From Perna viridis (taxonomy: Eukaryota), in the NCBI GenBank assembly GCA_037379345.1, contig CM074517.1, positions 44,748,577 through 44,812,576 of the forward strand: 64,000 bases of DNA, in the 5' to 3' direction. This document shows positions 13,738 through 60,774 of this stretch, in pieces (positions within the stretch are counted from its first letter, which is position 1; each line of letters opens with the position of its first letter). Under the pieces are notes generated by a model. It ran no database searches, had not been told where the DNA came from, and saw only the letters and a program-made list of their open reading frames with translations. The position numbers and the translations under genes were made by a program.

Positions 13738-14578
13738 CCGAAGAGCTGCATAAGCCAGTCCAACGTAACTTTCAGAAGATCGCGTGGTGGTAGGTGGGGT
13801 GGACGAGACCTGGGTTGCCGATCTCGTAGATATGAGCGCCTTCTCCCGCGATAACCGAGGCTTCAAGTATCTCTTGAGCATCATCGACGTCTTCTCCAAG
13901 TACGACTGGCTGGTGCCGCTCAAGAATAAGAGAGGCGCCACGGTGCGAGATGCCTTACGGACCGTCTTCAAGGATCGCACGCCCGAGAAGCTATGGACCG
14001 ATAAGGGGACGGAATTTTATAATCGCGAGATGAAGGATCTGCTCAAGAAGCACGGCATAGATCTCTACTACACAGAGAACGAAGAGAAATCAAGCGTGGT
14101 GGAGCGTTGGAATCGTACCATGAAGGAGAAGATGTTCAAATATTTCTGGGCCAATTCCACGCGCACCTACCTTCCCGTCTTGGACCATCTCGTCCACCAG
14201 TATAATACCACCAAGCATCGATCCATCAAGATGACTCCCACCGCCGCCAGCGAGAAAGAGCACGAGACCAAGGTCTTCTGGAATCTTTACGGAGACCTCC
14301 CACCCATGCAGCCGCGGCGATTCGACGTGAGCGATAAGGTCCGAATCACCAAGAAAAAGAGCACCTTCGAGAATGGATATACTGCGCGATGGACGGAGGT
14401 CTTTACCATCGCCCAGGCCCTAGCGACGCAGCCACCCACCTACCGCCTCAAAGACTACGAGGGTGAGGAGATCAAAGGATCCTTCTACGAGCCCGAGCTT
14501 CAGCGCACCGATGAGGATATCTATCGCATCGAGAAAGAGAAAGAAAATCTTGAAAGTCAGAAAGTCAGAAAGTCTTGA
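13728..14578 (+). pseudogene. Retroviral-like (rve) DDE integrase, frameshifted near its N-terminus, chromodomain apparently lost
   Basis: DELAEELHKPVQRNF then WVADLVDM (D), LWTDKGTEF (D), VVERWNRT (E), GSFYEPELQ; ends shortly after IYRIEK. Confidence 0.92.
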
Positions 14579-14660
14579 TTTACGCATGCTTCAGCTCGAC
14601 GAAGACCCTTAATGCGTCCAGATCCGCCTGCAGGCGATCGTGAAGGGCTTTGGTGATAGG

Positions 14661-15050
14661 TTAGTTGTCGGTCCGAGGAAGTGGGAGATTTAGCAGGTGA
14701 TATTTTTGCATGTCTAGATCCACATTCACCTTGCCGCCATTGGTCGAGACGCAATCTGACTTATCGACTTTGCCATCTTCTACGGCGATCAGCTTTTTGG
14801 TAAGATCTTTGATCGATGCGTCATACTCCCTCTGCTTCCGCTTGATGGTCACCTGGATCTGCTTACATTCCAAATCTAGCTCGTCGATGTCTTTCATGCC
14901 GTCTTTCAATTGTTGGGTGACCCCTCGCTTCGTCACGGCGTCCGAGCTGTCTCGGGGCAAACCGAGGCTGGTGATCTGATGATCTTTCATATCCTGAAGC
15001 ATCCGCCAGACGGGCATGCGCTTTCTCGAGTGAGATCCAAACTTATCCAT
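14661..15050 (-). CDS. Fibre-like / trimeric stalk-repeat protein
   Basis: Two motifs, DMKDHQITSLGLPRDSSDAVTK and DMQKYHLLNLPLPRTDN, resemble tail-fibre/adhesin neck repeats and are separated by a coiled coil; preceded by TAGATAAATG. Confidence 0.5.
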   Translation of the reverse strand: MDKFGSHSRKRMPVWRMLQDMKDHQITSLGLPRDSSDAVTKRGVTQQLKDGMKDIDELDLECKQIQVTIKRKQREYDASIKDLTKKLIAVEDGKVDKSDCVSTNGGKVNVDLDMQKYHLLNLPLPRTDN

Positions 15051-15054
15051 TTAT

Positions 15055-15468
15055 CTATAGTCCGAAGATCACCTCTTCCAGCGTCCGACCTTCCGATAAG
15101 AGCTTCAGTACGTGCAGGCAAAAGTGCCCGCAGACCACGTCGCCGCGCCGCTGGAGCTCATCGGTATTATATCGAATTTCCGGCTGCAGATAGTCGACCA
15201 TCTTGTCGGGTGGAGGCAGGCCGTAGGAGTCGAAGTAGACTTTGAGTCCTCCACGCTTATACCAGCACGTCCAGTGCGTGCCGAAGCCATCGCGATCGTC
15301 GTGATTCAGGACGCCGCACTCGTTGGGTTGGGGGTTGGATGGTAGGGCACCGCGCATGAATACTCCTCTGAATCGAGGGATGCCTAGGGCCGTGGCGGCT
15401 TCCTCGAGCTCTATGTTGGAGAGGGGCTTGTGGGGGAGGAGGATACCTTGCACGCGTATGCTGCTCAT
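15055..15468 (-). CDS. Adenain-like cysteine maturation protease
   Basis: Catalytic motifs GTHW (H), YFDSYG (D), ELQ (Q) and CGHFC (C) in an intact 137-aa ORF. Confidence 0.93.
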   Translation of the reverse strand: MSSIRVQGILLPHKPLSNIELEEAATALGIPRFRGVFMRGALPSNPQPNECGVLNHDDRDGFGTHWTCWYKRGGLKVYFDSYGLPPPDKMVDYLQPEIRYNTDELQRRGDVVCGHFCLHVLKLLSEGRTLEEVIFGL

Positions 15469-15488
15469 TTATCTAGGTATGAGCATTC

Positions 15489-15576
15489 GCCAAGTGTGGG
15501 ATGGGCATCCACACCCGTCAGAACCTGCTAAATGCGGGATGGGCATCCGCACCCGTCAGAGAATGCTAAGTGCGGA
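15489..15576. repeat. 38-bp tandem repeat (~2.3 copies), each full unit forming a hairpin
   Basis: GGGATGGGCATCC(A/G)CACCCGTCAGA at 15498 and 15536; GCTAA(A/G)TGCGG at 15527 and 15565. Confidence 0.85.
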
Positions 15577-15592
15577 GGGGTGGTGGATGACC

Positions 15593-18500
15593 TCAGGCGT
15601 GGGCGATTCGATAGTGTCCGAGGGCGAGGGTGATAATGCCGTCCGGGAGGATGTGGCGCTTGTCATCTTTGGCGGAGAGAGCGATCTTGATCTCCTCCGT
15701 GTAGATCTGATGGAGATGGCTCCGGATGATATTCATCGGACGATGAATCTCCTGCTGGGTGTCAAGGCATCGCTTGTAGTCCTCGAAGGCGATGCTGCGC
15801 TTGGTGACTCCCTTTGCCTTCTTGATGGTCTCGTCATCCCCTACCTTGAAGGCATATAGCTTCGCCTGTAGCCCCACGAACTCGGTCATGGTCTTACCGC
15901 CGCACTCGTCCTTGAACATCCCGATGATCTTATTAACGTCAATGGGGATGTTGGGCGTATCGAATTTTTCCGGGATGTGTGGCGCGATGTCTTTGTAGAA
16001 GTCGGCGGTCTGGATTTCGTAGGCCAAGCTGTCTGTGTCGGTAAAGAGCAGCCGAACCTTATCGCCGTACGTCTTTCTCACGAATCCGTAGTGGAAGTCG
16101 TACATCAGGAGCTTCGAGATATCCAAGATGCAGGCTCCCAAGTAGATCGGCTTATCGAACTTCAGCTCGGTCTTCTTCATATGCACGGCTACAAGATTCT
16201 CGGTGAAGACGACCCTCCGCTCAAAGTTGGGTTTGGCCACGAGCTTCAGGGCCTGCTTCGCGGTGGTAACTAGTTTGACGTCGACGCGCTTCGGGATATT
16301 TTCCATCGTTTTGCCGAAGACCGAATTATTCATGAGCTTGAAAAACGCGTTCTCGGAGTCGGTCTTAACCGCGCCTCGAAGCTTCGTATTCAGCTCGATA
16401 TACGACTTGAGCCAGGGGGATTGCCTGAACCCTATGATGCGATGGACTTTGACGAGCTTCAAGCCCATCGATAAGTAGAGCTTGAGATTTCGATAGTGAA
16501 GGGCATATTTTTTCGCGCTTGCCTAGATGAGGCACGAGCTTGCGCACCTTGTCGATTTCCACGTTTTCCGGCGCGAGAGTGTGGTCGTTGTGGGCGTCGT
16601 GAAGATCTTGCAGATATTCCAGATTGCATTCCACTCTGGTTCCGTATTCGTGATCGTCTGGATACTCCAAGACCTTCTCGATCTCCTCCGGCTCCATCCA
16701 CTCGAAGTCTCCCGTGGGAAGGGGCTGTACCATCGCCCAACCGTAGAGGTTATTGGCGTCGAGGTAGGTGAGATATTTGGTTGGTTGGGAGTGATCGTAG
16801 TCGGCCATGTAGGGACCCCCTTCCTAATCATTAGCTCGTACTTATCGCTAAAGCATTCCCGAACCGCATTGAATTTATCGGGCGTGAGATTCTTCGCCAG
16901 ATTTTCGAGGTAGCTGAGCATGAATCTGCACGAATCGATGAATCTCATCTCCAGACCATCTTTTATCTGCTTCGAGAAGCTTATATGTTTCTCGTTCGTA
17001 TTCGGGATGCAGGTGATCTTTCCCCCGTTGAATTCCTTCACGAAAAGATGGGCATCGTACCCACTCAGGTTGTGGGGTATGATGGGCACGTGCTTCGGAA
17101 GCTGAAAATCTAGGTTGCACTGGTTGTGTGCCGCGCCCCGATACTTACCGGTGAGGTGGTCGTGGTCCCGGACCTGATCCCCATTCAATGCGAATGTGGA
17201 TGTGGCAGTGCGTGCTTTCTTCAAATCCCTCCTTATCCTCGTCGCTCATCTCCATCGGCTTCTTCTCCTTGCATATCTTGCTGATCGCCTGTACTTCCTC
17301 TTCGATGCATTGCACAAATATCTTGGCCGCCTCCTCCCCGCAGTAGACGACCGATTCCTTGTAGTCGCCGCAGGCATACTTCAGGCGATAGCAGAAACCT
17401 AACGGCCGGTGCTACTGATACTGCTTCGTGTAGGACTTGGTCGGGTCGGGCCGGCAGGTATCGATCTTCTCCGTGAAGCACTCAAAGTCCGCGTAGATCG
17501 CGAATGGGACTGTCATCTGCCTCTTGTGATTATGGAAGGCTATGGTGGATCCTTCTTCCGGCATCTCGATCCTGATCGCATCCTTCTGGCTGCAATATTC
17601 CATATGGTCCTCGAGAAGGTCCTGTCTGGCGATGTGGTAAAGGCATCTGCGGCAGAAGAAGAGCCCATGACCATGCTCTGAGATTTGGGAACTCAAAAGG
17701 CGTGATAAGCTCCTGATCCAGCAGTAATGCTGCTTGCCTTCGCGGGTCAGGAAGAGGAGATCTACGTGGGTGGGGCTCGTATTCTTTGATATCCTGAGGG
17801 GGTAAACCTGGAGATTCTCTTCTTCATCTTCACCCTTCTTTACGCCATCGAAGCCAAAAACGTTGACGTTGATGTTGGGGTTCTGCCTCTCGAATTTATC
17901 GATCGCCTTGAAGGAGACCATGAAGTCGACGCCTTCGAATTTTAGCTCACCCTTCCATCTCTTGTATTGAGCTACGCGGTTTGCTGACTTCTGGCCAATC
18001 TCATCGTAGTGTAGGGCTGCCAGCACCGCCCACTGGAAGCAACGATCATCCTCATTTTTCACATTGACGATCGCCATTTTTTTCGCGAGTGCCGATGGGG
18101 TTGCTATGAAGGAACCCCCCTTGATTGGCTTGAATTAGTTGAGATGGATTTCTAGCTTATCGATGCTGCTGAATGTCCACCCGCTCCCTTCCCACATGCA
18201 TCTTGCCATATTTTCCTTGACCTTCTCCATCATGAACGATCTCCAATTCGAGGTCGTCAGATTCCGCGACCATTGTCGTGCGTGATCGGAAGTAGGGGGT
18301 GAAGTAGCCAGTAGGTATTCTCCCCAGTCGCGGGGTTGGTTTTCACCATCTCTGCAAAGATCACTAAGTGAACTTTCAATCCCTTCTTTTGAGTGAGCGC
18401 GTTCGAGATGGCGGTGGTGATGGTGCTCCGACTACTTTGAGAAATGTGGTCACGTCGTGCGGCTTCGCGGGTTCGTTGACGACCGTACCAAATACACCAT

Positions 18501-19262
18501 TCAGATCTTCCCGCCTATGGGTGACCTTGTTCTCATCTTCGACTGGGGCGCTTTTGATGTCCTCTTCCACCAAATGGAGTAGATCGTCTCTCTTGAGCTG
18601 GGAATATTTGGTGAGGCCACAATTCTTTGCTAGCGCTTTGAGCTGCTTCTTGCTGAAGACTTCCTGGCGGGCAAATTTACGGGTGGTTTTCTTCTCGATG
18701 AGCTTCACCAAGGCCTCCTTGTTCTTCCTACTGACCCCCCTCAGACCCTCATCCTTAGCTATTTGACTGAGAGTCGTCATGGTCTCTTTTACCACCATCT
18801 TACCCTCGACTGGGATGACCTCCTCCTCCTCCTGCTGGCGTGGTTGCCTGCTATGCCTTCAGTAGAGACCATCCTTCCCGGGCTTGCTTTTGCAGAACTT
18901 CCCCTTCTTTCTCTTGAGTGGGACGCCGCAAGTGGTCTTCTGTTCCCCTGGTTGATGCTCAAATCGCGTCTTGGTTGATTGTGCACCGCAATTTTGACAC
19001 ATCTGGGTATGCTCATCCGTCTGCGTCACGTTGGGGATATCGCAGCACTCCCGCTGCCTTTGGGGGTTTGGAGTTGGAGTGGTATCCTCCAAATCTTCTT
19101 CATTCTCCAGAAAGAATTCCTGGTAGCGATTTATATTATCACTATTGGATGCCACCCCTTTATTCATTCAATCTGTGGCACATCTCTCTTTAAGGTGTCC
19201 TTATCCACATCCCCACTATCCTCAGCTGGGTCGACCTGACGTATGCTCTGTACGAAAGCCAT
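15593..19262 (-). pseudogene. polB: Protein-primed family B DNA polymerase with long N-terminal extension, multiply frameshifted
   Basis: Pol motifs YLDANNLYGWAM, KLMNNSVFGK and TDTDS; Exo motifs YADFE and HNLSGYD; endonuclease-VII-like DHDHLTGKYRGAAHNQCN; OTU-like VNVKNEDDRCFQWAV...HYCWI; C2H2 finger. Upstream ORFs 18376-18798 and 18859-19167 are in frame with each other; that they belong to the same gene is inference. Confidence 0.93.
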
Positions 19263-24184: not shown

Positions 24185-24685
24185 ACAGCTTAGATTGAGA
24201 ACGGCTTGTATTTAGATTTTATGAGATAAGGTTGAACACGCGCATGTATTAATTGTTTATTGAAATACAATTGAGGACGGCTCGTATTGTGTGTTTTATG
24301 AGATAAAATTGAGGACGGCTCGTTTTGTGTGTTTTATGAAATAAATTTGAGAACGGCTTGAATTGGGTTACTGGGAACCGCTTAGATTGAGAACGGCTTG
24401 TATTTAGTGTTTAATGAGATAAGATTGAAAACGCGCATGCATTAATTGTTTATTGAAATAAAACTGAGGACGGCTTGTTTTGGTGTTATATTAGGTAAGA
24501 TTGAGACCGTGCATGCATTGATTGTATATAAAATAAAAATTAGGACGGCTCGTAATGTGTGTTTTATGAGATACGATTGAGAAAGGATTATTATGGATGT
24601 TTTATTAGATAAAATTGAGAACGGCATGTATTGCTTGTTTTATGAAATGAAATTGAGAACGGTTCGTATTTGATGTTTCATGAGC
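24185..24685. repeat. ~40-bp degenerate minisatellite
   Basis: Recurring GATAAAATTGAG(A/G)ACGGCT(C/T)GTATTGTGTGTTTTATGA; the same unit also occurs at 21735-21805, on the other side of the foldback element. Confidence 0.8.
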
Positions 24686-25909
24686 TGCCTTGTCTATCTT
24701 GTTTTATTTTCACTTTCAGTTTACTTTTATATTGCTGGAGTATATAGGGGTAGCTATTTCACTATACTTGTGTATAATGTTATTTTGGGACAACTGTAAT
24801 CTGCCCAATGGTGTCAGTGTTCCCTCTCCGTTCATTTAAGACCCATGGGTGGTCATGGGCTGAAATGTTTCGTCCCTGTGAGGTTGTTGTCTCTTTGACA
24901 TAATCACCATATCCTTTCTCGTTATAAGAGATATCAAAGAGCTTTTTTAATCTATTGTGCTTCTCTGGTTATTAGGATTATTTGGTTGCTTTGTTCTAGA
25001 ATAATTAATTTTGTCTAACTCTTATTTCAAAGACATATTTGTTCTAGTTTAGCACGCCTGTATGTGTTGGTATTCATAACGTTTTCAAGTAACCACAAAT
25101 GTCGGGATGGGTGGCATACATATGTACGTGATTTTGATTCAGAAGCGATATATCTACATCATCAAATTTCTTGTAAAAATATAATAATTTGTTGATTCAG
25201 CCAATCAAAAGTCGAACATTATATCATATTATGACAGGTTATCTCTTTAAATGTATTCCGATGTTACAACTAAATTAATCTTATACCGGTAGTTACTATA
25301 TACTGTATATTTGAATAAAAATAAAATTTCCTTGAAAAAAACATGCGGTAACAGTTCGAACAATTACTTCCTAATTGCTAAAGTCACTTCCGAAATACAT
25401 CATTTCCAACGGACAGATTGTGTGTCATTCATGTTTCAGAGCATCTACATATACAGGACGAATAGACACCTCAATCGAAGACTTTTTTCTGATTAAACAA
25501 TTTGCACATTGTGAAAAAAATACGACTCCGTGGCCCAATTGAGTTTTTGAAAAATTCAAGAAAAACAACCAGTAATGGAAGTAATTATGTAGCAAAATGT
25601 ATGTTAGTATTTCAGTTAGGTAAACAAACCAGGACGATCTTCAATATAATTGTTAGGTTTTAATTACCTCATTAAAATCAAAATTGTAAAACAGATGAAG
25701 TTTTGTCAATCTTATTGTACCATGTAAATAACGTAACGCACTAACTATAAGGTCGTACATGTACAGTTCTTATATTATTTAAAAATGTTTTAATGTGTGC
25801 AATTAATCAATTGAATATATTACAAATCTATATTTGGTTTCATAACAACGCATGAGGAACTTAGATCTTAAGAATCGTAGATAAAATAGTGTTGGGTTTT
25901 GTAACTTTT

Positions 25910-26056
25910 TGTAACTTAGTACACGATGTATGGTAAGTACGGGACAGTTCATTTAGATGTTGTTTAAAGGGAACGGAGAGAACGACCACAAATTTGCATC
26001 GCATATTTGACAGTTCTAACATCCATCGTTGGGAATTTTTCAGACCTTTATATATA
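25910..26056. mobile_element. Rearranged fragment of the tRNA-Leu-headed element
   Basis: 25910-25961 matches 29370-29420 directly, whereas 25979-26050 matches the reverse complement of 29150-29215; ends in TATATA. Confidence 0.7.
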
Positions 26057-26604
26057 CTTAAGGGTTTGGATTGGGAAATGATCAAATCATATTGCTGTTT
26101 CATTCACAGATAAAAAAAGGATTAAACTAGTTTAAAAATAATAACACAAAATTTTGTAAAAAAAGTTGTATTCCAGTGACATTGATATGACTACATACAT
26201 TTTTTTTTACCATAAAACATAACAATTTCACCATACTGCAATGCTATGGGTTCATCATATACACAGCATAGCAATGTTATAGAATGCAAACTATTTTACT
26301 TGATCATCTGTTCACACAAGCAATTTTGTAGAAATCTCGAGGAAGGTTTCAAATTTAATTTGAACATGTCTCCGTTGTGCAGGAGGACAGAAGACAAAAC
26401 CAAAATATATCTCTCCTATCAACACCCTGGCGGAATTTTAATTTTCCCTCATTTTAAACAACGTACTATATATTTTTTTTTATTCCAAAAAGATACTATC
26501 TGACTTTGAACATTTGGTTATTTAATTTTAGTATTCGTTGAACATTTTGATTGAACATCGCCATACATATCGCGACTGCTATTCAGTTTGGATTTACGGC
26601 ATCA

Positions 26605-28209
26605 TCACAAGCATTTTTTTATTGTTTTCCAAAGACGAATCCTAAGCTTTTGTCCCATAACGACATACACAACAAAGTTTAAACCGTAACCAACCATCAG
26701 ATTAATTTCCCTAAACTGAACAACAATCTTGAATGTGTCGATTCCGACTTCAATTCTCTGTGCAACGATCATTTCAAGCATGATATTTAGGATCTCTGAA
26801 GAAACTAAAATGATACAAATGAACACAATTATTATTGATGACTTCCGGTTCCGGCTCCTTGTGGTCAACGATTCTTTCCATGGCAGGGTTCGCCCGGAGT
26901 TTGTTAACTTAAATACCATTAGAACTGTGCAGACAAAAACTATGGCAATAAGAATTATAGAAACAAAGTCAACAAATTTTGTATTGACATTAAAGTCACT
27001 GTAAAGTACGTTCTTTTTTAAGCAACATATTTGATTGTGCTGATATATTGACATGAACGGACTATGGTACTCGAAGGAGTAAATCAAAACAGATATCAAA
27101 AGTGACAAAATTGCTAACACATCGAAGTAAAGCCTCTTCAGGTTAACTTTGCTCCATATTGGAAGAAACATGGCTAATGTCTTTTGAATACTAAGCAGGC
27201 ATGTGATCCATATCGACGTCATGTGGAATATTTGTCACGTAATTTGAAAAGACATTATGATGAAAAACGACATTTGATCGGCTACAAAAGAACCTAGGTT
27301 GAATGTGTCGTAGAACTTATACAAAATACTTAATGCAACATTTTTCCCGGTCATCAACACTGCTGATAACGAATCACTCACGGCCAAATAAATTATTAGA
27401 GAAATTGCAGAGTTCTTTTCATGACGTAATATTGACGTCACAAATAAATTAACTGTAATAATTTCAGTCATAATAATCAACTGCCAAATAAGAGTAAAAG
27501 AGGGTAACACAATTGAAATGCATGGTATATCGTTAGAAAAGCAATAATGTATAGAAAGGCAATGATATTTTTCATTAAAATTGTTTAAATCGAGGAAACT
27601 GATTTGAATTTCATTTTGTGATGATAAGTTTTTTCTGTTGGTTATATCATAAAACAATGTTGCGCACTTTTCTGTCTTGATCGTAACAATGGAAACATCT
27701 TTAAGACTTTTCATTCTGAGAAAGAAATAATGGTGAATAAAGCCTTTTTTAAAATGCGGACCCCAAATTAACTGAAAAGAAGCCATGGAAATATAAGTTA
27801 TTGTCTTCGAGCAATTGCTATTTCTTCTCATCCATTCATTCAAATTTGATTCCGCAATTTTGTTATCCAAAGAGTGTATATATTCTTCCATAGACGATGT
27901 GCAGTAGTTTTCAACATCATTTGTAAAGAACATATCAATGCCGGTGAAGAACGGAAAAACTGACGTACGATTTAAAGATACATTACTCCAAGTGAAATCT
28001 TGTACAGTTGTTGAAATCAAGTGAGGAAGTTCCATTAACAATGTGGTCACTTCATCGGTAATCAATTTATTGCTATTATTACCTGAATTGTTATAGTTGA
28101 AATACATTTTCTCGTCATTTTGAGTAGACTCTTTTGAGATATCTACAAAATATGTAAAAATGAATAAAAAAAATGTAGTAAGTTTTAGATCAAACAAGTA
28201 GTCAAACAT
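26605..28209 (-). pseudogene. Intronless rhodopsin-family (peptide-receptor-like) GPCR with long ectodomain; single in-frame TGA
   Basis: ORFs 27235-28209 and 26605-27222 are in frame across one TGA (FQIT*QIFHMTSIWIT); signal-like N-terminus; TM motifs YLAVSD, SIWITCLLSIQK, LNFVVYVVMGQKLR. Confidence 0.8.
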
Positions 28210-28624
28210 CGGCTATATAACGTTCATATTTTTGGCAATCCGTCAGACGAATTGTTGTTGAGCTGATGTTTTAAACGGTTGAAGTTGGCTGCGACGGTTA
28301 ATTATCATTTTATGACTTTAAGTCATAAATAGTTCATAATATTTTAAATTGGAATTCTCGCTTAAAAATCTGTCTTTGCAAGGATCGGTGAGTTATTAAC
28401 TACATTGTATCTGTCTAAATATTATCTACCGCCCATTATTCTACAATGTAAGTCTTAGTGAAATGGAAAACGAAATCGAAATGGATGGCGCCGGTTTTAT
28501 TTTGTCATTCATAACGATGATCGAAGGTCAGCCATTTAATGTAAGATAAAAATAAGTGATTAAATGGAAGGTTTTAGAATGTTTGTCAAATATGATTCTG
28601 TGTGTTGTCTTTTAAGTCGTTTGT

Positions 28625-29052
28625 ACGAGTCTCATTTACAGACGGAAAAGGAAAACTAACGATCAAACTATACGACAAACGCGACGACTTCTTATTCAAT
28701 ATTGTCAGCTTTCCTTTCATCTGTGGAATCATTCCGTTAGAACTTGCTATTGGAGTGTTTATATCACATTTCATACGTTACGCGAGAGCTTGCCAAAACT
28801 ACAGAAACTTTTTGTACCGTGCTAGACTTCTCACAATTCGGCTTTAAAACAGGGTTATCGTACTGAAGATTCTAGATGAGAAGAGGACACTTACCCGACC
28901 GGTACACCTTGTTAATGGTCTCGTTTTTCGTCAAATCCGGGTTGGTCATTTTCTTCTATTTCCTTGTTCTCTTTTTTTGTTTTTCCCCTGTCTAGACTTT
29001 ATTCTTGGAATATATTCATTTGATTTTCAATTGAATCTTGGTTGCTTGATTA
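28625..29052 (+). mobile_element. Penelope-like (Naiad-type) element 3' fragment
   Basis: DGKGKLTIKLYDKRDDF...FPFICGIIP...GVFISHFIRYARAC plus a degraded 3' UTR matching 61560-61815. Confidence 0.8.
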
Positions 29053-29060
29053 TTTATATA

Positions 29061-29516
29061 TATACAAACGTCTCAGAATGTGACGACTCTAATCGCTACA
29101 CTGCTCCATCGGATCAAATTGATACAGGGAAGATATGTAAACGTATAGAAAGGTCTGAAAAGTTCCCAACGATGTTAGAACTTCAAATTTGCGATGCAAA
29201 TTTTTGGTCGTTTCCTCCGCGCGCGGGACTCGAACTCGTACCGCTGTGACATCTATGGCAACACCGCCTGCACAAAGTCCAGCGCCCTAGACCACTCGAC
29301 CAGCTAGGCTATATAAAAATATAGCTTTCGCTGACCGGATCATTCCTCCTCGTAGGATTAATCTAGGGCTGTAACTTAGTACACGATGTATGGTAGTACG
29401 AGACAGTTCATTTAGATGTTATTATGTAGGATAGAGGATCAAATTAATGATGCATGTCACAACAAATCAATATTATACAAACGTCTCAGAATGTGACGTT
29501 TCTATTCGCTACACTG
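29061..29516 (-). mobile_element. tRNA-Leu-derived non-autonomous element: 413-bp unit plus ~43-bp terminal redundancy
   Basis: Head at 29309-29220 with A box TGGTCGAGTGG and B box GAGTTCGAGTCC; direct repeat TATACAAACGTCTCAGAATGTGACG at 29061 and 29474. Confidence 0.75.
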
Positions 29517-29529
29517 GCTTTTATATATT

Positions 29530-30205
29530 TTTATATTTGTACCATCTTTTTGGAAAAACAACGATGTATAATGTTTTTAAGTCGGGATTTTAACTGAGTA
29601 TGGGGAATAGAAGTATACAGTGTTGTAAAATCATAGGTTTTAATGCTATTATATTCAGATAATAGTCATGAACTGATTGTCTCCAAACGATCTTTCGAAT
29701 TTTTCAGGATCCACATTGAATTAATACCACTATGGGAGTAACAAGTGTTGTGGTAGGACTGCAGACCCTCTTTGACAGTTGTGAGTATAGAAGTTAAAAG
29801 TTTTGAAAGAGATTTGGTGGTACATTTTGCAGATCCAGCTATGAAACGTTGTTTGTATGCATTCTTGTGAAGTTTAGGAATCCAGTACATAAACGGTAAA
29901 TCACAATCATCGTTCTTGGTAGAGAGACCAAAAGAGGATAGCACAGATTTATGTTTTTCCACAATCTCTTCTTTGGAGACAGAGGTAGCAGTATAGGTCT
30001 TATCACTGCTATTATTTTCTACGTCTACCTCTGATAATAAACATTGGATATAAAACGTTCGGCAGACAAAAACAATGTTGTTTTGGGCTTTGTCTGCTGG
30101 TACGACAACATATTTGTCATGTATAGTAGACAATGTTTTTGCTACATCGGGGTCTTTGAAAACTGATATATCCTTGGCACTCATTGACCTACTTAAACTC
30201 GAAAA
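29530..30205 (-). mobile_element. Penelope-like (Naiad-type) RT fragment
   Basis: YVVVPADKAQNNIVFVC, YWIPKLHK...QRFIAGS, MWILKNSK, and downstream YDFTTLYTSIPH. Confidence 0.85.
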
Positions 30206-31166: not shown

Positions 31167-32709
31167 ATGAAAAGTCATATGTTTATTTCTGTTAACTATA
31201 ACATTTGGAAAATATATCAAAAACAAAAATATGTATTCTTCCCAACCTTGAATCACATTTTAACATACTCACATGTATTAAAAACACATTTTGTATGGGT
31301 AGAAGGATCGACCTTTCGAATCGAGGAAAGGACAATGGTATATCCTTATTAACTTTACCTGACATTAACAAGTTTCAAAAAAGATACAAATGCTTATCTG
31401 TTTCTTCCTGTAGTGCAAACGATTTGCCATGTGTTGAAATTCTACTACCTTCAATGATTGGTTATTTGCAAATTGGACTAATGATTGTAGGTATTCTTTT
31501 CAACACATTTGTTATGATTGCGTTTTGCTGATACTCGACGTCACATACAACACATTTTCGAATTGAAGCTCTACTTTTTAAACCGTCGGGACTTACCGCT
31601 AGAATTGTCTCTCTTTTATTTAATATGAAGATAGTTCGCATATATGCATGACGTGTTAGTACCAACGAGTCGCTTATTAGCTTAAATCATCCTTAAGGGA
31701 AAATCCCATACTAATATCCGCCATGTTGGTTTCTACGGGACGATTTGTTTACAAACGAAGTTCGTAAGTTTCCGTCGAACTCCGGTGACAATGCATTCTG
31801 GGTTCTTCGGTTTTTGGACAAACCATTTAAACGTAAGCAACATCTCCTAGCAACCCAATCACTGTAAACATGGCCGACGTTTTACAATGTAAATATTGGC
31901 ACCAAGAATTAAAATCTGACCGGAATTTAACGATTCAATGTTTAGGGAGAAACCGTTTGGCTAAACGAATGAGCAAGTCATTTAAGACAATTTAAACGAG
32001 GTAGGTGTCAATAAAGTCGCAGAAAATATTTTTATTCAAATTTTAACAGTATGTTATTCATGAGACGCCGAGTATAGTAAATAATACTGACATTGGAGCA
32101 CTTTTAAGCTACTTGGCAATTTGTTACACGATATACGCTATATTGATGGCCAGGAGGAGCATATCTGTTATACTTTTAAATGGGCACATACCGTCGTTCA
32201 ATCCGGGAGTCGTTGCAGTCAATTATTTTACTTACATTGTCACATTTTCTTTACAAATAGCGTCTCAAATTTTCCATATCACGTCGATATTGACAACAAC
32301 TCTTCTCAGTTGACATATTGCAGTAATTTTTTCATTCTTTTTATCCGTTTTAACCTATTTTTTTCACGCGGAGAAAATGTGGTCTTCTATCTATGAAAGG
32401 AAAGCAAACTGTTGCCAACATAAAACTTACATTGATGACGACTCGGCTGTCGGAACACAGATAACTGGTCTGCCTTTCTCTGTTCTTTGTGGAATAGTTT
32501 TTACCTGTACTATAACCGTTATTTTCAAGCTCATATGCTTAAGGCGAAATTTAACAATTAAATTAAACTTTACAATTTATCTTACTATGGAGAAAAGTCT
32601 AAGACGTGTGCTAAAAGCATGTCTTTATTTATGCTTCTGTAGATGTCGTATAGAAAGAAAAAAAGAAAATACAATATCTGCCCGCGTAAGCATTATTTGT
32701 AACCACTGA
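31167..32709 (+). pseudogene. Degraded paralogue of the 26605-28209 GPCR, interrupted by a MITE
   Basis: ISLLTLPDINKFQKRYKCLSVSSCSANDLPCVEILLPS aligns with ISFLDLNNFNEKYHCLSIHYCFSNDIPCISIVLPS; LQIASQIFHITSI aligns with FQIT*QIFHMTSI. Confidence 0.78.
31534..32072. mobile_element. MITE with TA TSD (Tc1/mariner-like)
   Basis: TA|CTCGACGTCACAT ... ATGAGACGCCGAG|TA; splits the GPCR pseudogene between TM1 and TM2. Confidence 0.72.
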
Positions 32710-35427
32710 GAATGACTAGACTATCAATATTCATGTACATTAACTTTTAACTTTCTTATTGTTGTAACACAAAACTGACAAGGAAAAACACATTAAGTAC
32801 TACTCTGTCTACAAATCAGGCAAATATGTGTAAGGTGTGGCACATAAAAACAAACATACACACATAATCGTTTTGGTATTATCTAGGTATTTATACCTCA
32901 TAACCTTCAGAAATATCCATTGAAGTGCTTTTTAAAATTTGCGTTTTAAAGATATGATAGCTCAAATTTAGTTGTAAAATAATATGCAAAATGGTGGGAA
33001 AGGTTTTCCACTTTTTTCCTATATAAGGAATCAAAACGTCACAGATGCTTCATTATGATTTTAAAAAGTTTTTCAGTCGTTTTCTAGATGAATTTGAAGC
33101 AAACAAGAATAAATTGAGAAAAAGTATGTCCCACTCACTGCCCGATTCTAACACAAAATGATACATAAATTTCTTACAAAGACGAAATGCAACGAACTCT
33201 ACCTAAAACATCAGAGGTAGAAGAATAAATAGTTCCTTCTTTTTGTAAGACGCCTGCCCTCCTACCAAAATAAGGGTCGTGTCTGGTAAAGAATGATTAC
33301 TTGAAGTTTTTAGAAACTTTTAAAATTTCTTTGCATATATTAACTCTTTTATAACACCCCATATTTTCAAATATGACTTCTGTGATTGTTTTAAATATAT
33401 TTTAGTGATAAATATGTTTTCCGTCTTTCAGAACCTGTTGAATTGAACATGTTTTGAATGATGCTGGAATAATGTTATTAATTTATTTATCACAACTGTT
33501 AAAGACATAAGCACTACATTCGACGTCAGTTGGAGCCGGTTATTGATTTATCTATACATGTGTTCAATTATTATATTCCCTGGAGACGGAGTTATCTTTT
33601 ATTTTATTAGTTATGCATAGAATTTCAACATCAGTTCGTACGGGTATATTCTTTACGACAAATCCTACGGATTCCGCCATGTTTTATTGCTAAGTGTCGT
33701 TGTTCACAAATTCGATTGGTCAAATTTTAACTACTTAAATTATAGAAAGACGTCGTTTTATGATACGATTTAGCCGGTTGTTCAAAACAATTTGAACAAC
33801 GATAGGTATAAATTATCATATCATTCTCTATTTTACTTCCAATATGAATAGGTCGGACATTATTTGAAGCCGAGTATAATAGATGAATAAATTCCCTAAA
33901 CAATGTATGAAAGCATAATCCTCTGACAAATTATTTCCAACAGTATAATTACTGAGAAATTAAAAATTGATTGATCTACCTCCGTTCAAACCATTTTTCA
34001 ATTCGATAACTTTTTGTTGTAGCGAGTCACCAATGAGCGTCTAATCAAGTATTTAAAAGTATACATTAGTATTCACACAATAAGATGATTCTTATGGGCA
34101 TTTTTATTGTCTATGAGTATTAAAGCTTATCACGTTTGGATGACATGCTTTTAACAGGATATTAATTAAGCATACTGGTCTTATACTGTACTAACATGAC
34201 TTATTAATAACATACTGTTAGACCAACATGCTGACAATAATTGGAGATAGCAATGTTCATATCAGTCCTTTGATAAGAATACAAAGTATGAATACTATTT
34301 CGTCTTCAGTCATGTAAAGATTGTCTCCCACTTCTAAAAATGGAAAATGTGAATAGTACGAATGGTAGGAATAAATATCCTTACTGTCAATATTAATATT
34401 ATCAGATATGACAGAGTCGTTCAATGTAAATGTGTCAGCGCAAATGATACTTGTATGTGTCCCTTGTCTGTAAGCGAAGTTGAGTTTCGAAAACGACATA
34501 CAAAAGACATATCAAAACAAAGCGAAGAATGCTCGTCGATTTGATTCGTGCATGCAAATATTTGTTTTACATAATAGTTATATCTGTATAATTTTTATTG
34601 ATCTCATACTGGATATCAACTTATTAAAATTGGTAATCATTACGATAAATCATTAATTGATGTAGACATGGAGAAGATCTGGGTCAATAGATATTAGTGA
34701 ATTACCGACTATTTTCTGTAAAGATGCAGACTAATGCAAATGCTTTACATTAATATTTTTAAAGAATAATGTTAACGAATATATTTAAGGATTAATTCTT
34801 ATTTCTTGCAGCAGTTTATACTTGTAAACCGCTAAGGTGTAAACTGGTCCAAACTAGGTTATTGAGTATAACCTATTCAAATATTTGAAACATTCCTTAT
34901 AATTTAATTTCTAGTGTGTGAAAATCCAAACTGTGATTTTGTTTGTGAATATTTGAATTGCGGAGTGCGGACCAATCGACGGTAATGACGTTATAGTACC
35001 AAGTCAGGTTATACAAAATGAGAGAACCAACCAATTAGAAAGCTTGTTACAAAGTCAAATTAAATTACCCTAGGTTGAGTGTCGTTGTACGAATAAGGCA
35101 GGGGATGAATCATGGTACAAAAAATCCTACAGTTTTGATTTTAATTTGTCTATTTGCACGATCAGAATCAAGGGAAAAAACAAGATTTTCCGCATTACTC
35201 AGGTGAACTTGAGTCCTTATTTTTATTAAAATACACTGAAAATAAAAAAAAGAAAGAAATTTTAACATTTTTTGTTCTTTTGAAAAAATGTAGTTTTGTC
35301 AACAATGGAAATAAAATTCGGTCCATATTTATTTCTTCTTTTAATTTTGTATGATACCTAACAAACATATTTTTTTACAAAACAGAACGGCGTCTAAATT
35401 CTCTATTGTTGCAGTATCCGCGTCTTT

Positions 35428-36400
35428 TAAATGATGAGACCTGGATTTTGTTTCTACCTTGCCTATCATTTGAATGATGAGACCTGGATGTTGTTTCTAC
35501 CTTGCCTATCATTTGAATAATGAGACCTGGATGTTGTTTCTACCTTGCCTATCCTTTAAATGGTGAGACTGGATGTTGTTTCTACCTTGTCTATCATTTA
35601 AATGGTGAGACCTGGATGTTGTTTCTACCTTGTTTATCCTTTGAATGATGAGACCTGGATGTTGCTTCTACCTTGTCTATCCTTTGAATGATGAGACTTA
35701 GATGTTGCTTCTACCTTGTCTATCCTTTGAATGATGAGACCTGGATGTTGGTTCTACCTTGCCTATTCTTTGAACGATGAGACCTGGATGTTGGTTCTAC
35801 CTTGCCTATTCTTTGAATGATGCGACCTGGATGTTGTTTCTACCTTGCCTATCCTTTAAATGGTGAGACCTGGATGTTGTTTCTATCTTACCTATCCTTT
35901 GAATGATGAGACCTGGATGTTGTTTTTACTTTGCCTATCCTTTGAATGATGAGACCTGGATGTTGTTTCTACCTTGTCCATCCTTTGAATGGTGAGACCT
36001 GGATGTTGTTTCTACCTTGTCGATCCTTTGAATGATGAGACCTGGATGTTGTTTCTACCTTGTCGATCCTTTGAATGATGAGACCTGGATGTTGCTTCTA
36101 CCTTGTCTATCCTTTGAATGATGAGACCTGGATGTTGCTTCTACATTGCCTATTATTTGAATGATGAGACCTGGATGTTGTTTCTACCTTGTCTATCCTT
36201 TGAATGATGAGACCTGGATGTTGTTTCTACCTTGTCTATCCTTTGAATGATGAGACCTGGATGTTACTTCTACCTTGCCTATCCTTTGAATGATTAGAAT
36301 TGGCCGTCGCTTCAAACTTTCCTATTATATGAATGATGAGACTTTGATGTTGTTTCTGTCTTGCCTATTCTTGAATGATAAGACTGGGATGTCGCTTCTA
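35428..36400. repeat. 43-bp minisatellite, roughly 22 copies
   Basis: Unit GAATGATGAGACCTGGATGTTGTTTCTACCTTGCCTATCCTTT, head-to-tail with no spacers. Confidence 0.95.
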
Positions 36401-37167
36401 CTTTTCTAATCTCTGCATCTAACCTTGCTTATGTCTTCATAAAATATAACGGAACGCAGAACGTTTGTTTCCCCAGTACAGCTCTTAATACAAAGTTTTA
36501 ATGATATAATTATTTCTTAGCATGTCGTTAAATTAAATGAAAAGGATATTTTGTTCTTTTATAATGAACTTTTCACTTTTATCTTGGCAAATAATACCAC
36601 AATACAGTTTAAATTGAGTTCATTCCATAAGAAAAAATGAGATATGATAATAACAATGAACTCTTGATACAGTATTTTGGTGATAAAATTATTTCTAGGT
36701 GTGTCGTAAAAGTTAATGAAACAGTACTTTTTTGTTTTACATTGAAATATTTTACCTTTATGTTGACAAACAAACAAAACTAAAAAACAGTTTAAATTGA
36801 GTTCACTTCGTAAGAAAGAATGGGATTTGTAAATAACCTTGAACTTTTTGTTTGTTTTTTTTTTAATTATCTTTCTATATAAATTAAATTTAATCCACGT
36901 AAGTAAGATATTGTTATCTAAGTACCATATGTATATGCTCATTTCTAACTTTTCAGACGTTTTTCAGGGTTGATGACCTGAAAGATAAGTGGTCAGACAC
37001 ACTCTTTACCAGTAATAGGCAGAGAGACAGTTTCCCAGGTATGAGGGCGTTACGGGCCATAGTTAATATTTATAGAAAATTGACTTATAGAATATTGTTA
37101 ATTATTTGGCGTTTTTAAAAAACTATCCTGTACAAAAAAAAAAACAATACCAGTTGTAAATTTCGAT

Positions 37168-37211
37168 ATGCTGTACACATGTTTCAAGGAGTAACCTCAC
37201 ATCAGCAGCAT
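37168..37211 (-). ncRNA. Minimal type I hammerhead ribozyme, copy 1
   Basis: ATGCTG-CTGATGT-GAGG ttact CCTT-GAAAC atgt GTA-CAGCAT; perfect 6-bp stem I, one core substitution (A9>U). Confidence 0.75.
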
Positions 37212-37542
37212 TAAAATCAAATATGTAGGAAGATCATAATCAAAATATTACTTGTATACAAGAAGTACTCATAATCAAAACTATCGAAAGAGGAAGCCAA
37301 ATCCATCACCGAGTCTACCATATGCAATGAAAGGAATGAAGCTTCGGTGTTTTATGTATTTTAAAATTTGGAATGCTGGAAGATTTCATAAATAGGGTAG
37401 ATAAAATATATTATTCGGGGTCAGACAGGTCTGACTACTGGATTGATGAACACCCTCGGGGACCTCAGGTCCACCAGCAGTGGTATCGACCCAGTCGTTT
37501 TTCATATAAAAAATACCAGTTTTATATATTGTAAATTTCGAT

Positions 37543-37586
37543 TTGCTGTACACGTGTGTCAAGGAGTAACCTCTCATCAGCAGAAT
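37543..37586 (-). ncRNA. Minimal type I hammerhead ribozyme, copy 2
   Basis: TTCTG-CTGATGA-GAGG ttact CCTT-GACAC acgt GTA-CAGCA; GAAA>GACA substitution, palindromic ACGT loop III. Confidence 0.7.
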
Positions 37587-37925
37587 TAAAATCAAATATG
37601 TAGGAAGATTATAATCAAAATATTAGTTGTATACAAGAACTACTCATAACCAAAACTATCGAAAGAGGTAAACCCAATCAATCACCGAGAGGTTCTACCA
37701 TGTGCAATGAAAGGAATGAAGCTTCGGTGTTTTACGTATTTTAAAATTTGGAATGCGAGAAGATTTCATAAATAGGGTAGATAAAATATAATATTATTCG
37801 GGGTCAGACAGGTTTGACTACTGGATTGGTGAATACCCTCGGGGACCTCAGGTCCACCAGCAGTGGTATCGACCCAGTCGTTCTTAAATAAAAAAAATAC
37901 CAGTTTATATATTGTAAATGTCGAT

Positions 37926-37969
37926 ATGATGTACACATGTTTCAAGGAGCAACCTCTCATCAGCAGCAG
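37926..37969 (-). ncRNA. Minimal type I hammerhead ribozyme, copy 3
   Basis: TGCTG-CTGATGA-GAGG ttgct CCTT-GAAAC atgt GTA-CATCA; intact catalytic core, one stem I mismatch. Confidence 0.8.
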
Positions 37970-40260: not shown

Positions 40261-41405
40261 GGAATTAAAAATAAAACAACAATGTTTGAGGTTAAAAGAT
40301 AAAACAGCTTATTATCAAGATTAAACAGTGTTGGCAATGGCCTATTTGTGAAATAACATTAGATATAATAATAGATATGACAAATATAATTCATGGATAT
40401 CAAATATTAAAATGTGGCGTGAAAAATACATTTAAATTAAACTCGAGTTCTAGGAAAAGATTTCGGTGTGTGTTTGTGCTGACGCTTGTCAGTTTTAAGT
40501 TTGGTTTAGACCTAAATGTATCAGAATCTTTCATTTTTGTTCACTTTCAATACATCATAGCAAAAATCTAAAATCCAAAAATATAATTGAGTTTTACTAT
40601 TTTTTGTTTTCTTTTGTTGTGTTAGTTTGTTTTTTTTTTAATTTTTTTTTTGAAAATATTTAAAGAAAAGAAATGTAGAGGAGATTACTCTGCAAAACAG
40701 ACCGAAGCGTCAACAAAAAGGGGTGATACAAATATGTCAAAATAATAAAAAAAAACAAGCTTTGGGACCGCAACTGTGGTCGATTTTCGATTGTCATATG
40801 CGGCTTAAGCGACTTATCGGGCGTGGCTTGTGTGTGTGTGTAAATTATCGCCCACCTTAATCATGTAAACAAGCTCACGTAACATTCCGATGTGTATGTT
40901 TTCATTCGTTTCAGTAACATGAATGAACATCAAATTCATATTTTATAAAGATGTTAAACGTTATGTTTTAGAAAAGTTATAGAATATTCCGTACAAATCA
41001 CTTACACACATACTCAGTTGCATTTGCCAGGTGCGCCATCATATATGAAACCAAACAATAACAATCGCCATTGAATGAAACACTGTACCTGTCCATGTGT
41101 GAACACTTTGACCTTATGCAAACGACTATTGCCATATCTAATATCGATCTACGTAATTCGCCCATTCTTCATTAAAAAAACAAAGCAAAGTTTCACTAGC
41201 GACCATTGCAACTGATATAGGTAGTGTTAAGTGTTCAGCCAAATATGGACAAATATGGCTGATCTAAGGTTGCCGTAATAGGTCACCAAAATATAGTCTT
41301 CATTAACAAGTGCATTATATTATATAATATTCTATATTTATTTTTCACCACAGCAAGATAACTTTTTGTCTTATTTCTACGGATATTACCAAAAGCAGCT
41401 GAAAC

Positions 41406-43034
41406 ATGGACATGTTTACATTGAGCGTTCTCTTATTGTGCATATTAAACAAGAATATGGCATTCAAATCTACAGAAAATGACCCAATTGAAAGGTATAC
41501 AAACATTTGTGGAAATCTATTGTGTTATGGAGATGAAATATATCGGGAGAAAAACGATAGTCTTCCATGGTTTTGTGAAAGATGTTCATGTTCATCTGAT
41601 TGTATTGTTAGGAAAAATTGTTGTATTGACTATTATTTCCGAATACCAGATAGAGTATGCAAAGGTGAGGTTTTCTCTTATCCACAAGGATATGACAAAA
41701 ATACAAAGAATGACAAGGCTGTGGAAGTCTCAAAGTTTTACAGTGTAGTAGAACATTGTCCAAGTAATATATCAAATAAAGATCAAAATCGATGCGCCGT
41801 TGATTTTGGTTTAAATGAAAAGCTAACGTCACTTCCAGTTACGTCATTGAAAACGCATCTCACTTATAAAAATATTCACTGTGCAGAATGTAATAATGAC
41901 TCCGATAACTATATGGATTGGAAACTTTCTTTTAGATGTATGAAAGAAATAGATTTCAATATTGTTAATTCTATTGACGACATGATAACTGTAAGTACCA
42001 AAAACAAATGTATTATCAGTACACTTGCAAACAATAAAATTGCATTTGAAAAGTGCAAAAAACGTCGACATGTAGCGATTACATCTTGCAATACGACTGG
42101 AACATGGAAAAATGAAGTTCATGCTATTGTACAAGCATGTGAAAGCATTGACCAATCAATTGGTATGTTTCAAAACATATTTTGCTATATCTGTAATCCT
42201 CCTACAGGAAAATTAGATGTCATAGTTACTTGTCTGCCAAACTCACCTTTTTATGATAAATGTACAGATACGTTGCAGGACGAAGCAACTTATCCATATA
42301 AAAATGTATATGCATATATGAATAATATCAATGAAAGCAATGAAATGATAACAAACATTATATATAATGGGACAAATGAACTGACATTTCATGAATTCCT
42401 TGTTTTTACTCGGTCTTGTTCTGAAGGTTATGTTCTAGGAGAGTCAGAGCCGAATGCTAATCCTTGGAGACAACCATTACAAGTCATTCCATTCCAGTAC
42501 AAAATCATATGTCGAAAGTTGGAGGTATTTAGTTTGTTTTATACAGAAGAACAATTACTTCAGGAAGCTTGGGAACGAAGGTGTATGGCAATACCTCCAC
42601 CTCCAGGAATCGATTTGACATGCTACGAGAAAAGAAATCTCAACCGTAACTGTAACGTACCGTCCTACATACCGGGTCATGAGACTTTGAAGGAGGCCTG
42701 TCTTTACTTAGAAGATAAAAAGCTTTTGGCTTACAAAGGGTATTATAATGTATTCTGCTACTGGTGTGATTATCCCTATGAATTACAGTATGACCTTTGT
42801 TTTCCTTCGCCCGACAGTTTTCCCCTTTATTATGACATAGAACCGTACAGATGTGAAGATGTTTTGCCTTCAGTATTGTCAGTGGAATTAGTAGCGTGTA
42901 CTGTGTGCAGTAATTTTGGACCTATTCCTGATGCTGGATACAGACGCATGTTTTCTTTATCGTCATACGAAAGAGCCATAGAAAGTAGAGTAGATGTGCA
43001 GTGTTTGGGCAATGGGTTGTATGATGAAATAAAG
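41406..43034 (+). CDS. Class B (Methuselah/adhesion-like) GPCR, exon 1: signal peptide and Cys-rich ectodomain
   Basis: 543 open codons; signal peptide; SMB-like CERCSCSSDC...CCID; repeated AC...(Y/F)xN(I/V)FCYxC motifs; phase-0 donor AAG|GTAAGA at 43034/43035. Confidence 0.85.
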
Positions 43035-43376
43035 GTAAGAAAGTCATGATTTACTGTATATACAATAAGATCGGGAATTACAAGTCAATTACCAATATTC
43101 TTTTTCTATTTGAATATAAAAGTATAAAATTCAGAGCAAGAGAGTTTATATTGCTATCAAAACAGAAAGAAATAACCGGATGTTAATGTATTATTATATC
43201 CCGGTAAATCGAGTTATACTCGAATTTTCGTTGATATCCAATGTAATTCATGTGTAACTTGTCATTGTGTTCACCTACAGCATTTTTTCTTCTAATCAAT
43301 GAAATATTTGTTTTTGTAAAAGATGAGTATATAAACTTAAAAACAAACCTTGAAGCCATACGACCAAGATATATTT

Positions 43377-43580
43377 GATTGATTGATTGATTGTTGGGGT
43401 AAAGGCCCGAGCTGCAATATTTCAGCTATATTCAGGCAATGAACATGAAATGGATGATAAAATGAACATGAAATGATGATGATGATGATGAAATGAAAAA
43501 AAGAAGGGATGGGACACAAGGATAATAGAGTCGAAAAATTTTTAGTGCCACAAGATAAAAGGAAGAGATGATAGGGAGAT
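43377..43580 (-). mobile_element. Intronic SINE-like 3' fragment
   Basis: Reverse complement of the tail of 23486-24010, with (GATT)n. Confidence 0.75.
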
Positions 43581-44264
43581 AAATGCTTTACCGCCTGAAG
43601 TTGGTGAACTGCGATTTTAATATGGGACTTAATTTGGTGAATTCATTGTAGAAACCCATGCAAAGGGATTACAAAATCAACTTTACACAACTCGAATAAA
43701 GATCATGCAATAATGTTGACTGGTTAGGTTGAAATAAGAAAAAAAATGCTGTGGCTCCAACTTCATAAACTATTTATTATTAAAGAATTATACTTAAGTT
43801 ACATGTCATGTATACTTGTTCTGGATGTTTTCAACATACCCTTCTTTTCCGGTCATTTTGCACACTGATATAACTCATTACATTATATTATTGTTTTGAT
43901 TGAAATCCCTTCGACTTCGCCATTCTGCAATGGTCCATCTTCTGTCCAACTCTTCCAAATTTGTGATTTTGAAATTTATTCTGAATTTACTATAATTTAA
44001 AACGCCCATTTTACGCTAAATATTTCGTAGTAAAATCAACCAGTCAAGCGTAACCTTACCTTGAACCAATTACCGCATGAAAAACCGATTTTTGTGTAGA
44101 AGGAACGCGTGATATTTTTATAGGTTACTCTGTATTCTAAATATAGGAAAACAAATCCTTTTTTTCTGGTTAACAATTATTAAATAGCACATCACAGAGA
44201 AGTGGGTTTCATATAAAACAACGGCAGCGCCATGCTTGCCAGGATATTTTTTTTGTATCTAAAA

Positions 44265-60168: not shown

Positions 60169-60172
<4 letters not shown>

Positions 60173-60498
60173 AGGTCTGAAAAATTCCCAACGATGTTAG
60201 AACTATCAAATTTGCGATGCAAATTTTTGGTCGTTCCCTCCGCGGGACTCGAACTCGTTGCGCTGTGACATCTATGGCAACATCGCCTGCACAAAGTCTA
60301 AGTCTAGGGCGCTGGACTTTGTGCAGGCGGTGTTGCCATAGATGTCACAGCGGTACGAGTTCGAGTCCCGCGGAGGGAACGACCAACATCGTTGGGAATT
60401 TTTCAGACCTTTCTATAAGTTTACGTTATCTTCCCTGTATCAAACTGATCCGATGGAGCAGTGTAGCGAATAGAGTCGTTGGGAATTTTTCAGACCCT
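60169..60498. mobile_element. Head-to-head inverted pair of the tRNA-Leu-headed element between (TA)n tracts
   Basis: 60169-60298 matches 29148-29280 directly and 60302-60480 matches the reverse complement of the 29 kb copy, forming a palindrome centred near 60300. Confidence 0.85.
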
Positions 60499-60774
60499 TA
60501 TATATATATATATATATCAATGTAGATGCTGTTGTTTGTTGATGAACAGGAAGTGAAATGTTCATGTTTTGATAATAGAACAAAATATGAGGAGGAATGA
60601 AGCTTAAAGATGCAATTTTAAAGAAGACACTTGCACTTGGTTATAGACAACAACACATTTATGACTAATTCACAGCATGTACCCATTTATCATAAACATA
60701 TTCATACATTATAGTACTTAACTTTGCACATGTGCAAAAAAACAGAAGTTCTTTATTACAGTACTTTGTACTTC

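Follow-up and report, generated by a model that had tools for sequence, protein, structure and literature searches.

How does a repeat whose tRNA-derived promoter lies inside the unit, not at its 5' end, come to be copied throughout a genome? The question is raised by positions 29061-29516 of a 64,000-nt stretch of Perna viridis contig CM074517.1 (the window). An earlier note had read this locus as a permuted, tRNA-headed, ribozyme-free and non-autonomous family mobilised by a Penelope-type RT, with Naiad fragments nearby. The present analysis largely confirmed this class of explanation but reassigned the partner from Naiad to a Penelope-like element (PLE) with a C-terminal endonuclease. The element is a high-copy, non-coding unit of 410 bp that combines a tRNA-Leu-derived head with a Penelope-like two-site tail.

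The layout of the window copy is given in Table 1. Family positions are counted from the base that follows the most frequent 3' end, which makes the G of the head position 165 (29309). The family unit is 410 bp and not, as previously proposed, 413 bp, a length peculiar to the window copy with its 4-bp insertion and 1-bp deletion; this copy ends at the second 3'-end site. A 43-bp repeat (29061-29103 and 29474-29516) with a 413-bp period is indeed present, but it is no fixed terminal redundancy: the 43 bp show where a partial tandem was truncated at its 5' end, other copies carry anything from none to more than one extra unit, and the redundancy is incidental. The T5 ahead of the head does lie within the GCTATAT/ATATAGC hairpin (29325-29308), both other copies in the window are inverted rearrangements, and all three touch TA runs, as the earlier note had stated. 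Its placing of two copies beside Naiad fragments holds for the Naiad-type flanks of the main copy but not for the copy at 60169, where the nearest Naiad piece begins only at 60779, ~270 bp past the right end.

Table 1. Features of the element, its other copies and its immediate flanks in the window
Feature	Positions	Strand	Remarks
Full monomer, family positions 1-410	29061..29473	-	Position 1 is 29473, position 410 is 29061
End of the preceding unit, 43 nt (5'-truncated partial tandem, pLTR-like)	29474..29516	-	
tRNA-Leu-derived head	29226..29309	-	Box A 29302-29292; box B about 29237-29226
Junction hairpin GCTATAT/ATATAGC	29308..29325	-	Variable from copy to copy
T5 in the junction hairpin, putative Pol III terminator	29319-29315	-	Putative start is the next base, A at 29314
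Fold-back segment, positions 1-155	29319..29473	-	Decayed, deleted reverse complement of positions 160-410
Internal T-run, potential premature Pol III terminator	29158..29162	-	CTTTT in the window copy
First 3'-end site (putative RT initiation), AGAC..TATA, positions 315-327	29144..29156	-	
PLE-like tail, 83 nt	29061..29143	-	Ends in the second 3'-end site, AGAC at 29073
(TA)n tract at the 3' end of the insertion	29054..29064	.	
Second copy	25910..26056		Positions 51-104 minus, 251-327 plus; short TA run at the end
Third copy	60169..60504		Head-to-head inversion; position-327 end and TA tract on both sides
Naiad-type fragment, RT C terminus to 3' end	28641..29053	+	BLAST match 28641-28858; the rest by eye
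Naiad-type RT fragment	29522..30197	-	

Elsewhere, the window includes a GC-rich block at 8170-19167 with ORFs that we take to be Polinton/Maverick-like (protein-primed polymerase, integrase, ATPase and a capsid-like protein). LINE-like endonuclease/RT fragments were recognized from ORF translations at 1673-4752 and 57811-59022, and the ORFs at 26605-28212, 31202-32709, and 41403-46579 show a resemblance to GPCR and adhesion-GPCR genes. Minisatellites are found at 35426-36401 (43-bp period), 47114-47660 (88 bp), 24194-24684 (38 bp), and 37154-37966 (383 bp). Naiad pieces cover parts of 28641-30197, 51624-54680, and 60779-61819, and are also found at loci L103-L112.

A genome search with the element returned 2,961 candidates, of which 40 were scored, the best being 93 to 95% identical. 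Exact 20- to 22-mers from three parts of the unit had 2,863 (a 22-mer from the head), 1,967, and 3,112 matches in the genome, against 0 for the reversed controls. The copies diverge by 4 to 7% and comprise two subfamilies; the more diverged one retains TTAG in the anticodon region, presumably closer to tRNA-Leu(TAG), and pairs better there in the predicted RNA fold. The head, correctly described as a tRNA-Leu-like segment that starts at 29309 on the minus strand and is internal to the unit, aligns to the tRNA-Leu(TAA) of the same genome with a score of 44 (best of 500 shuffles, 36.5). The match falls at boxes A and B, both of which are well kept among the copies. ARAGORN did not call the head a tRNA, and Rfam found no tRNA, vault or ribozyme match in the element. 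The internal T5 at positions 309-313 is present in 159 of 187 copies. The tRNA genes of the host are found in long tandem arrays, with a period of 528 bp for tRNA-Leu(TAA) (L242, G000:C5:24731000-24732600) and about 1,091 bp for tRNA-Lys/Met (L075-L102).

The ends of the insertions were surveyed at the first pattern matches along contig C1, 90 merged loci with 105 insertions that were ascertained by exact markers and include a few segmental duplicates; clusters shorter than 60 nt or at locus edges were dropped. Most outer 3' ends (104 of 142) fall at two sites 83 nt apart, 55 of them at positions 301-340 and 49 at 381-410, with 3 at 150-164 and 9 at 309-313. A (TA)n tract adjoins 83 of the 142, compared with 66 of 3,690 control windows. 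The outer 5' ends are ragged, 23 of 68 lying at 141-180. Inversions are found in 46 of the 105 insertions (44%), 39 of which have 3' ends facing outward on both sides, and the 410-to-1 junction is crossed in 45 (43%); arrays reach about three units. Genome-wide, 1,233 ends were counted at position 327 and 780 at ~404-410 on the forward strand (the reverse-strand count being inflated by double matches), along with 1,456 read-through 410-to-1 junctions. No empty target site was found among 175 flank pairs or in four runs aligned to 25300-26700.

Partial tandems, 5' inversions, and an optional tail between two 3' ends (here ~327 and ~404-410) are hallmarks of PLEs, and the whole pattern corresponds to the one described for them (PMC8557442). 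In vitro, the optional tail has been traced to two internal RT start sites, and both target strands were extended, as reported in PMC11167929. The insertion anatomy of the element is of the Penelope type, so the end census bears out the proposal of a permuted, tandem or inverted non-autonomous family, and it is highly probable that the element depends on a PLE.

A candidate for that PLE is found next to the element itself: the flanks of several copies hold the 3' end of a non-Naiad PLE. It has an 843-aa ORF with the RT domain (Pfam RVT_1), C-terminal GIY-YIG motifs, and a CX2CX4CX2C linker; a sister ORF matches Pfam GIY-YIG at its C terminus. Judged by the linker, this PLE can be assigned to the Neptune/Nematis type, a CX2-5CxxC linker being described as common to both clades (PMC8557442). 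The named homologues of the protein come mostly from mussels and oysters. Near-intact copies with the 843-aa open frame are located at L288 (G000:C1:67573500-67581000) and L293. Copies of this PLE show a mean of 96% identity to the reference copy, close to the divergence of the element, and its pLTR carries a minimal hammerhead-like motif, about 55 nt before the first 3' end, which Rfam did not detect. The element outnumbers it roughly tenfold (2,863 versus 286 exact marker matches).

The 3' ends of this PLE lie at two AGAC sites separated by 83 nt, a spacing identical to that in the element, and (TA)n adjoins them in 22 of 41 and 10 of 12 cases. Among all 410 positions of the element, its own two sites were the best match to the two sites of the PLE (15/21 nt). 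The tail alignments with two PLE families were exceeded by 4 and 22 of 2,000 shuffles, with modest similarity and motif-anchored windows. At 83 nt, the tail of the partner is longer than the 30 to 40 nt reported for PLE tails. The second of these families (L298 and L300; about 68% DNA identity in the RT, 897-aa frame) has the same layout of a hammerhead and two sites, with an 88-nt spacing and a conserved small tail hairpin, and could be a second partner. The small hairpin in the tail of the element is common to both PLE families.

The element abuts the partner PLE in 17 of 30, 9 of 15, and 10 of 30 loci (overlapping sets that include duplicates), versus 1 of 21 Naiad loci (two of the 21 refetched). 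However, 18 of 33 such joints share a TA tract, and the element likewise adjoins 5 of 8 control TA tracts (2 of 5 if those in the window are excluded), so this adjacency mainly reflects a shared target. More telling are the chimeras with no TA at the joint. In L351, the second site of the PLE runs straight into the element at position 306, and at the truncated 5' end of the PLE the two are joined head-to-head. In L292, the PLE and an inverted element are linked by a piece of the head. Both would represent single insertions made from the two RNAs. By its 83-nt spacing, motif, (TA)n target and chimeras, the element resembles an autonomous PLE at the 3' end, albeit with modest similarity, and shares its target. 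We consider it quite likely, from these comparisons of sequence, that the mobilising partner is a PLE of the C-terminal-endonuclease type, and the element likely borrows its copying enzyme through a carried copy of the two-site tail.

Which RNA is copied has to be approached through the fold and the ends of the unit. A rod-like fold (-122.5 kcal/mol; z of -4.0 versus 60 shuffles) is predicted for the unit when it is read from position 160 round to 159; in it, 160-166 pair with 149-155, 170-177 with 137-144, and 181-190 with 105-114, the pairing continuing up to an apex at 410/1. The fold-back segment, whose complementarity in the window copy is clearest at 29369-29319, is predicted to close the RNA into this rod. 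Shuffling only positions 1-159 gave -105.7 +/- 3.6 kcal/mol (best, -114.0), and the rod contains 92 cross pairs versus a mean of 34 in shuffles, although the best of 100 shuffles also had 92. Positions 1-155 can be aligned with the remainder of the unit in reverse complement (exceeded by 6 of 1,000 shuffles), so an old tail-to-tail inverted duplication would have made the fold-back half; with the 55 nt next to the junction removed, the alignment is not significant (88 of 1,000). Within the family, paired sites are no better conserved than unpaired ones, giving no sign of selection on the rod, and a cut at position 160 is not distinguished from others by its folding energy.

Per base at risk, 5' ends number 45 of 3,634 at positions 148-180 versus 32 of 9,179 beside them (3.5-fold; P = 3e-8). 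Length variants of the junction T-run occur in 19 of 82 copies, compared with 6 of 187 for the internal T5, and the base before position 160 is not T in 11 of 82, compared with 7 of 187. Successive monomers share alleles (phi of 0.88 and 0.93 at two markers, 0.65 to 0.67 at three), and subfamily markers stay linked across both junctions, as expected if one RNA molecule is copied round. Recombination of markers at the head junction, expected if the RT jumps between RNA molecules, was not seen. The 5'-end excess, T-run variability, and allele sharing suggest an RNA that starts at position 160 and ends in the T-run before it; hairpin stalling and slippage in the TA context could mimic part of this junction signal. 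The T5 at 309-313 should stop much of Pol III. In runs that we guess to be RNA, the element is present in longer contigs, with the Naiad flank about as deep; these contigs show no ends, strand or level. The minor shares found in metagenome runs of unrelated origin were disregarded.

As for a ribozyme, the hammerhead core CTGANGA is absent from both strands of the doubled monomer, and no Rfam ribozyme family matched at an E value of <=5, in agreement with the earlier description of the element as ribozyme-free; Rfam also missed the minimal hammerhead of the PLE, so atypical motifs could escape it. A hammerhead-like stretch noticed by eye at positions 355-392 was dropped, as three core positions are missing.

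The reading that we favor, and think on the whole probable, is that a Pol III-transcribed, fold-back unit RNA is copied into (TA)n by the RT/endonuclease of a Neptune/Nematis-type PLE of the same genome. Pol III would start at position 160, often read through the T5 at 309-313 (an assumption of this scheme), and stop in the following unit, at the T-run of positions 155-159. The resulting RNA is predicted to fold into the rod with its 5' and 3' ends paired. The PLE enzyme would then nick (TA)n, often on both strands, and reverse transcription would start inside the RNA at ~327 or ~404-410, the two-site tail of the PLE's own copies; the DNA ends at these sites are those seen in the census. Upon reaching the 5' end of the RNA, the RT may stop, fold back, or jump across to the adjacent 3' end of that RNA. 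Such a jump would rebuild the terminator plus head, giving permuted partial tandems, each once more a complete transcription unit. The element itself could have originated by fusion of a tRNA-Leu head to a PLE tail, followed by the tail-to-tail inverted duplication, of which the fold-back half would be the decayed product. The specific combination of a unit RNA with a jump is, in our estimate, also rather more probable than not. More tentatively, and with the balance tipping slightly against it, the Pol III start and stop may have replaced the hammerhead, in a viroid-shaped RNA with paired ends and a captured PLE tail that the telomerase-related RT would permute circularly by jumping or rolling from its 5' to its 3' end.

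With the same PLE partner, other templates can be imagined. One is a covalently closed RNA circle of 410 nt, copied by rolling reverse transcription as proposed for retrozymes but with no ribozyme. Both ends of the predicted rod are closed by loops, arrays reach about three units, neighbouring monomers share alleles, and retrozyme circles are reported to be self-paired and 170 to 400 nt long (PMC7229834). However, no ribozyme was found that could generate a circle, which would not by itself account for the excess of 5' ends at the head. In addition, the ends of Pol III transcripts (5' triphosphate and 3' OH) are not the usual substrates of RtcB. We regard the circle as unlikely, and hardly less so the alternative that tandem copies supply the RNA as longer read-through products or Pol II transcripts, with the head vestigial or making only an ~150-nt RNA to the internal T5. 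The internal T5 and the 9 of 142 3' ends at it, the longer contigs in the presumed RNA runs, and the inheritance of both junctions in linkage would all be consistent with such transcripts. The 5'-end excess and the junction variability, however, coincide exactly with the start expected for Pol III, box A and box B are both well preserved, and in the absence of an end-to-start jump array length would be expected to decay.

Partners other than a C-terminal-endonuclease PLE fare worse. Naiads are described as giving tandem and inverted insertions, preferring (TA)n and lacking hammerheads (PMC8557442), and two copies in the window lie near Naiad pieces. The flanking family is Naiad-type, with an N-terminal GIY-YIG domain, CxC motif, and RT, but it has one fixed, sharp 3' end, adjoins (TA)n at 3 of 44 ends, in contrast to the reported Naiad bias, shows no detected homology to the element, and abuts it in that 1 of 21 loci. 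With 16,402 first-look candidates, it is so common that its proximity to the element is expected. While the Penelope-type mobilisation proposed in the earlier note is supported by the insertion anatomy, ends and target sites compared with Naiad did not match, and the C-terminal-endonuclease PLE fits instead. The Naiad partner was rejected; for the one abundant family surveyed, it is largely refuted and very improbable. An equally remote prospect is that later recombination produced the tandems and inversions in a MITE, a Helenus-type TRIM, or an ordinary SINE driven by a LINE. Some copies have the layout of a plain SINE, beginning at the head and ending at 327 or 410, the head has boxes A and B as in SINE2 elements, the junction contains inverted repeats, and bivalve SINEs do form tandems and palindromes, in at most 3% of copies (PMC11481361). 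The 44% of inverted and 43% of permuted insertions stand against this, as do the starting points, a majority of which at the head would, by the earlier note's own test, have counted against its proposal: just 23 of the 68 outer 5' ends map close to the head, and 1,677 heads are joined to their own upstream unit in intact terminator-head junctions, versus 61 directly after a long TA run, a lower bound because a stricter pattern was used. Instead of one LINE-like tail with TSDs there are two internal 3' ends that resemble a PLE tail, in a comparison restricted to PLE tails, and with TSDs unreadable inside (TA)n. Only 6 copies genome-wide end at the head junction before a TA run, so the element is not bounded by its inverted repeats, and a MITE was rejected on this count and on the 3 of 142 outer 3' ends at 150-164. 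A Helenus/TRIMp3 element (two LTRs, PBS, PPT, and 4-bp TSD) was rejected from the copy structures, which have ragged 5' ends and no LTR-internal-LTR layout.

Several known systems share parts of this organization. The SINE-like, non-coding Sm-alpha and Sj-alpha repeats of schistosomes also have a Pol III promoter inside a tandem unit and need an upstream copy for the full unit; their monomers are cut by a hammerhead, of which none was found in the element, and neither a fold-back half nor a PLE tail or autonomous partner is mentioned in their description (PMC6765202). Non-LTR retrozymes likewise form tandem units (170 to 400 nt) with self-paired RNA and have been proposed to be mobilised by PLEs, as outlined in PMC7229834 and bioRxiv 10.64898/2026.07.22.740005, but they carry a type I hammerhead in each unit, which the element lacks, having a tRNA-derived promoter and a terminator instead. 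The C-terminal-endonuclease PLEs (Neptune/Nematis, and Poseidon PAc for the mechanism) are similar in their partial tandems and 5' inversions, in the optional tail between two internal RT starts, and in AT-rich or microsatellite targets, as described in PMC11167929 and PMC8557442; the element differs from them in having no ORF, a tail of 83 rather than 30 to 40 nt, and a promoter of tRNA origin. Non-autonomous Chlamys elements such as MRC1 are also non-coding, pLTR-forming, arranged head-to-tail and similar at the 3' end to the autonomous partner; unlike the element, they are algal and have a partner with an N-terminal endonuclease, and their description in PMC8557442 mentions no tRNA head. 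The TRIMp3 elements (Cassandra, Helenus, and Ajax), which are present in bivalves, have an internal Pol III promoter from which transcription passes out of one repeat into the following one, as in the element, but according to PMC10886601 they are LTR elements with a PBS, PPT, and 4- to 5-bp TSDs, a layout that the element does not have.

An entry for this family, as an unclassified SINE or a satellite, may already exist in repeat catalogues. A search of the openly accessible literature, repeat databases (Repbase, Dfam) not included, turned up no PLE cargo that combines a tRNA head, a fold-back half and a matched tail and lacks a ribozyme. The normal partners of SINEs are LINEs, and, to our knowledge, the PLE cargo described so far either relies on a hammerhead, as in retrozymes, or is a deletion derivative. 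The element displays the RNA features that a PLE RT may need in trans, namely, the two AGAC sites, their 83-nt spacing, and the small hairpin. The origin of pLTR tandems is listed as unresolved in PMC8557442 and PMC11167929, and the element offers a small natural substrate on which an end-to-start jump, a circle, and a multimer could be tested as their source. If the scheme proposed here is correct, every long insertion of the element would recreate a complete transcription unit.
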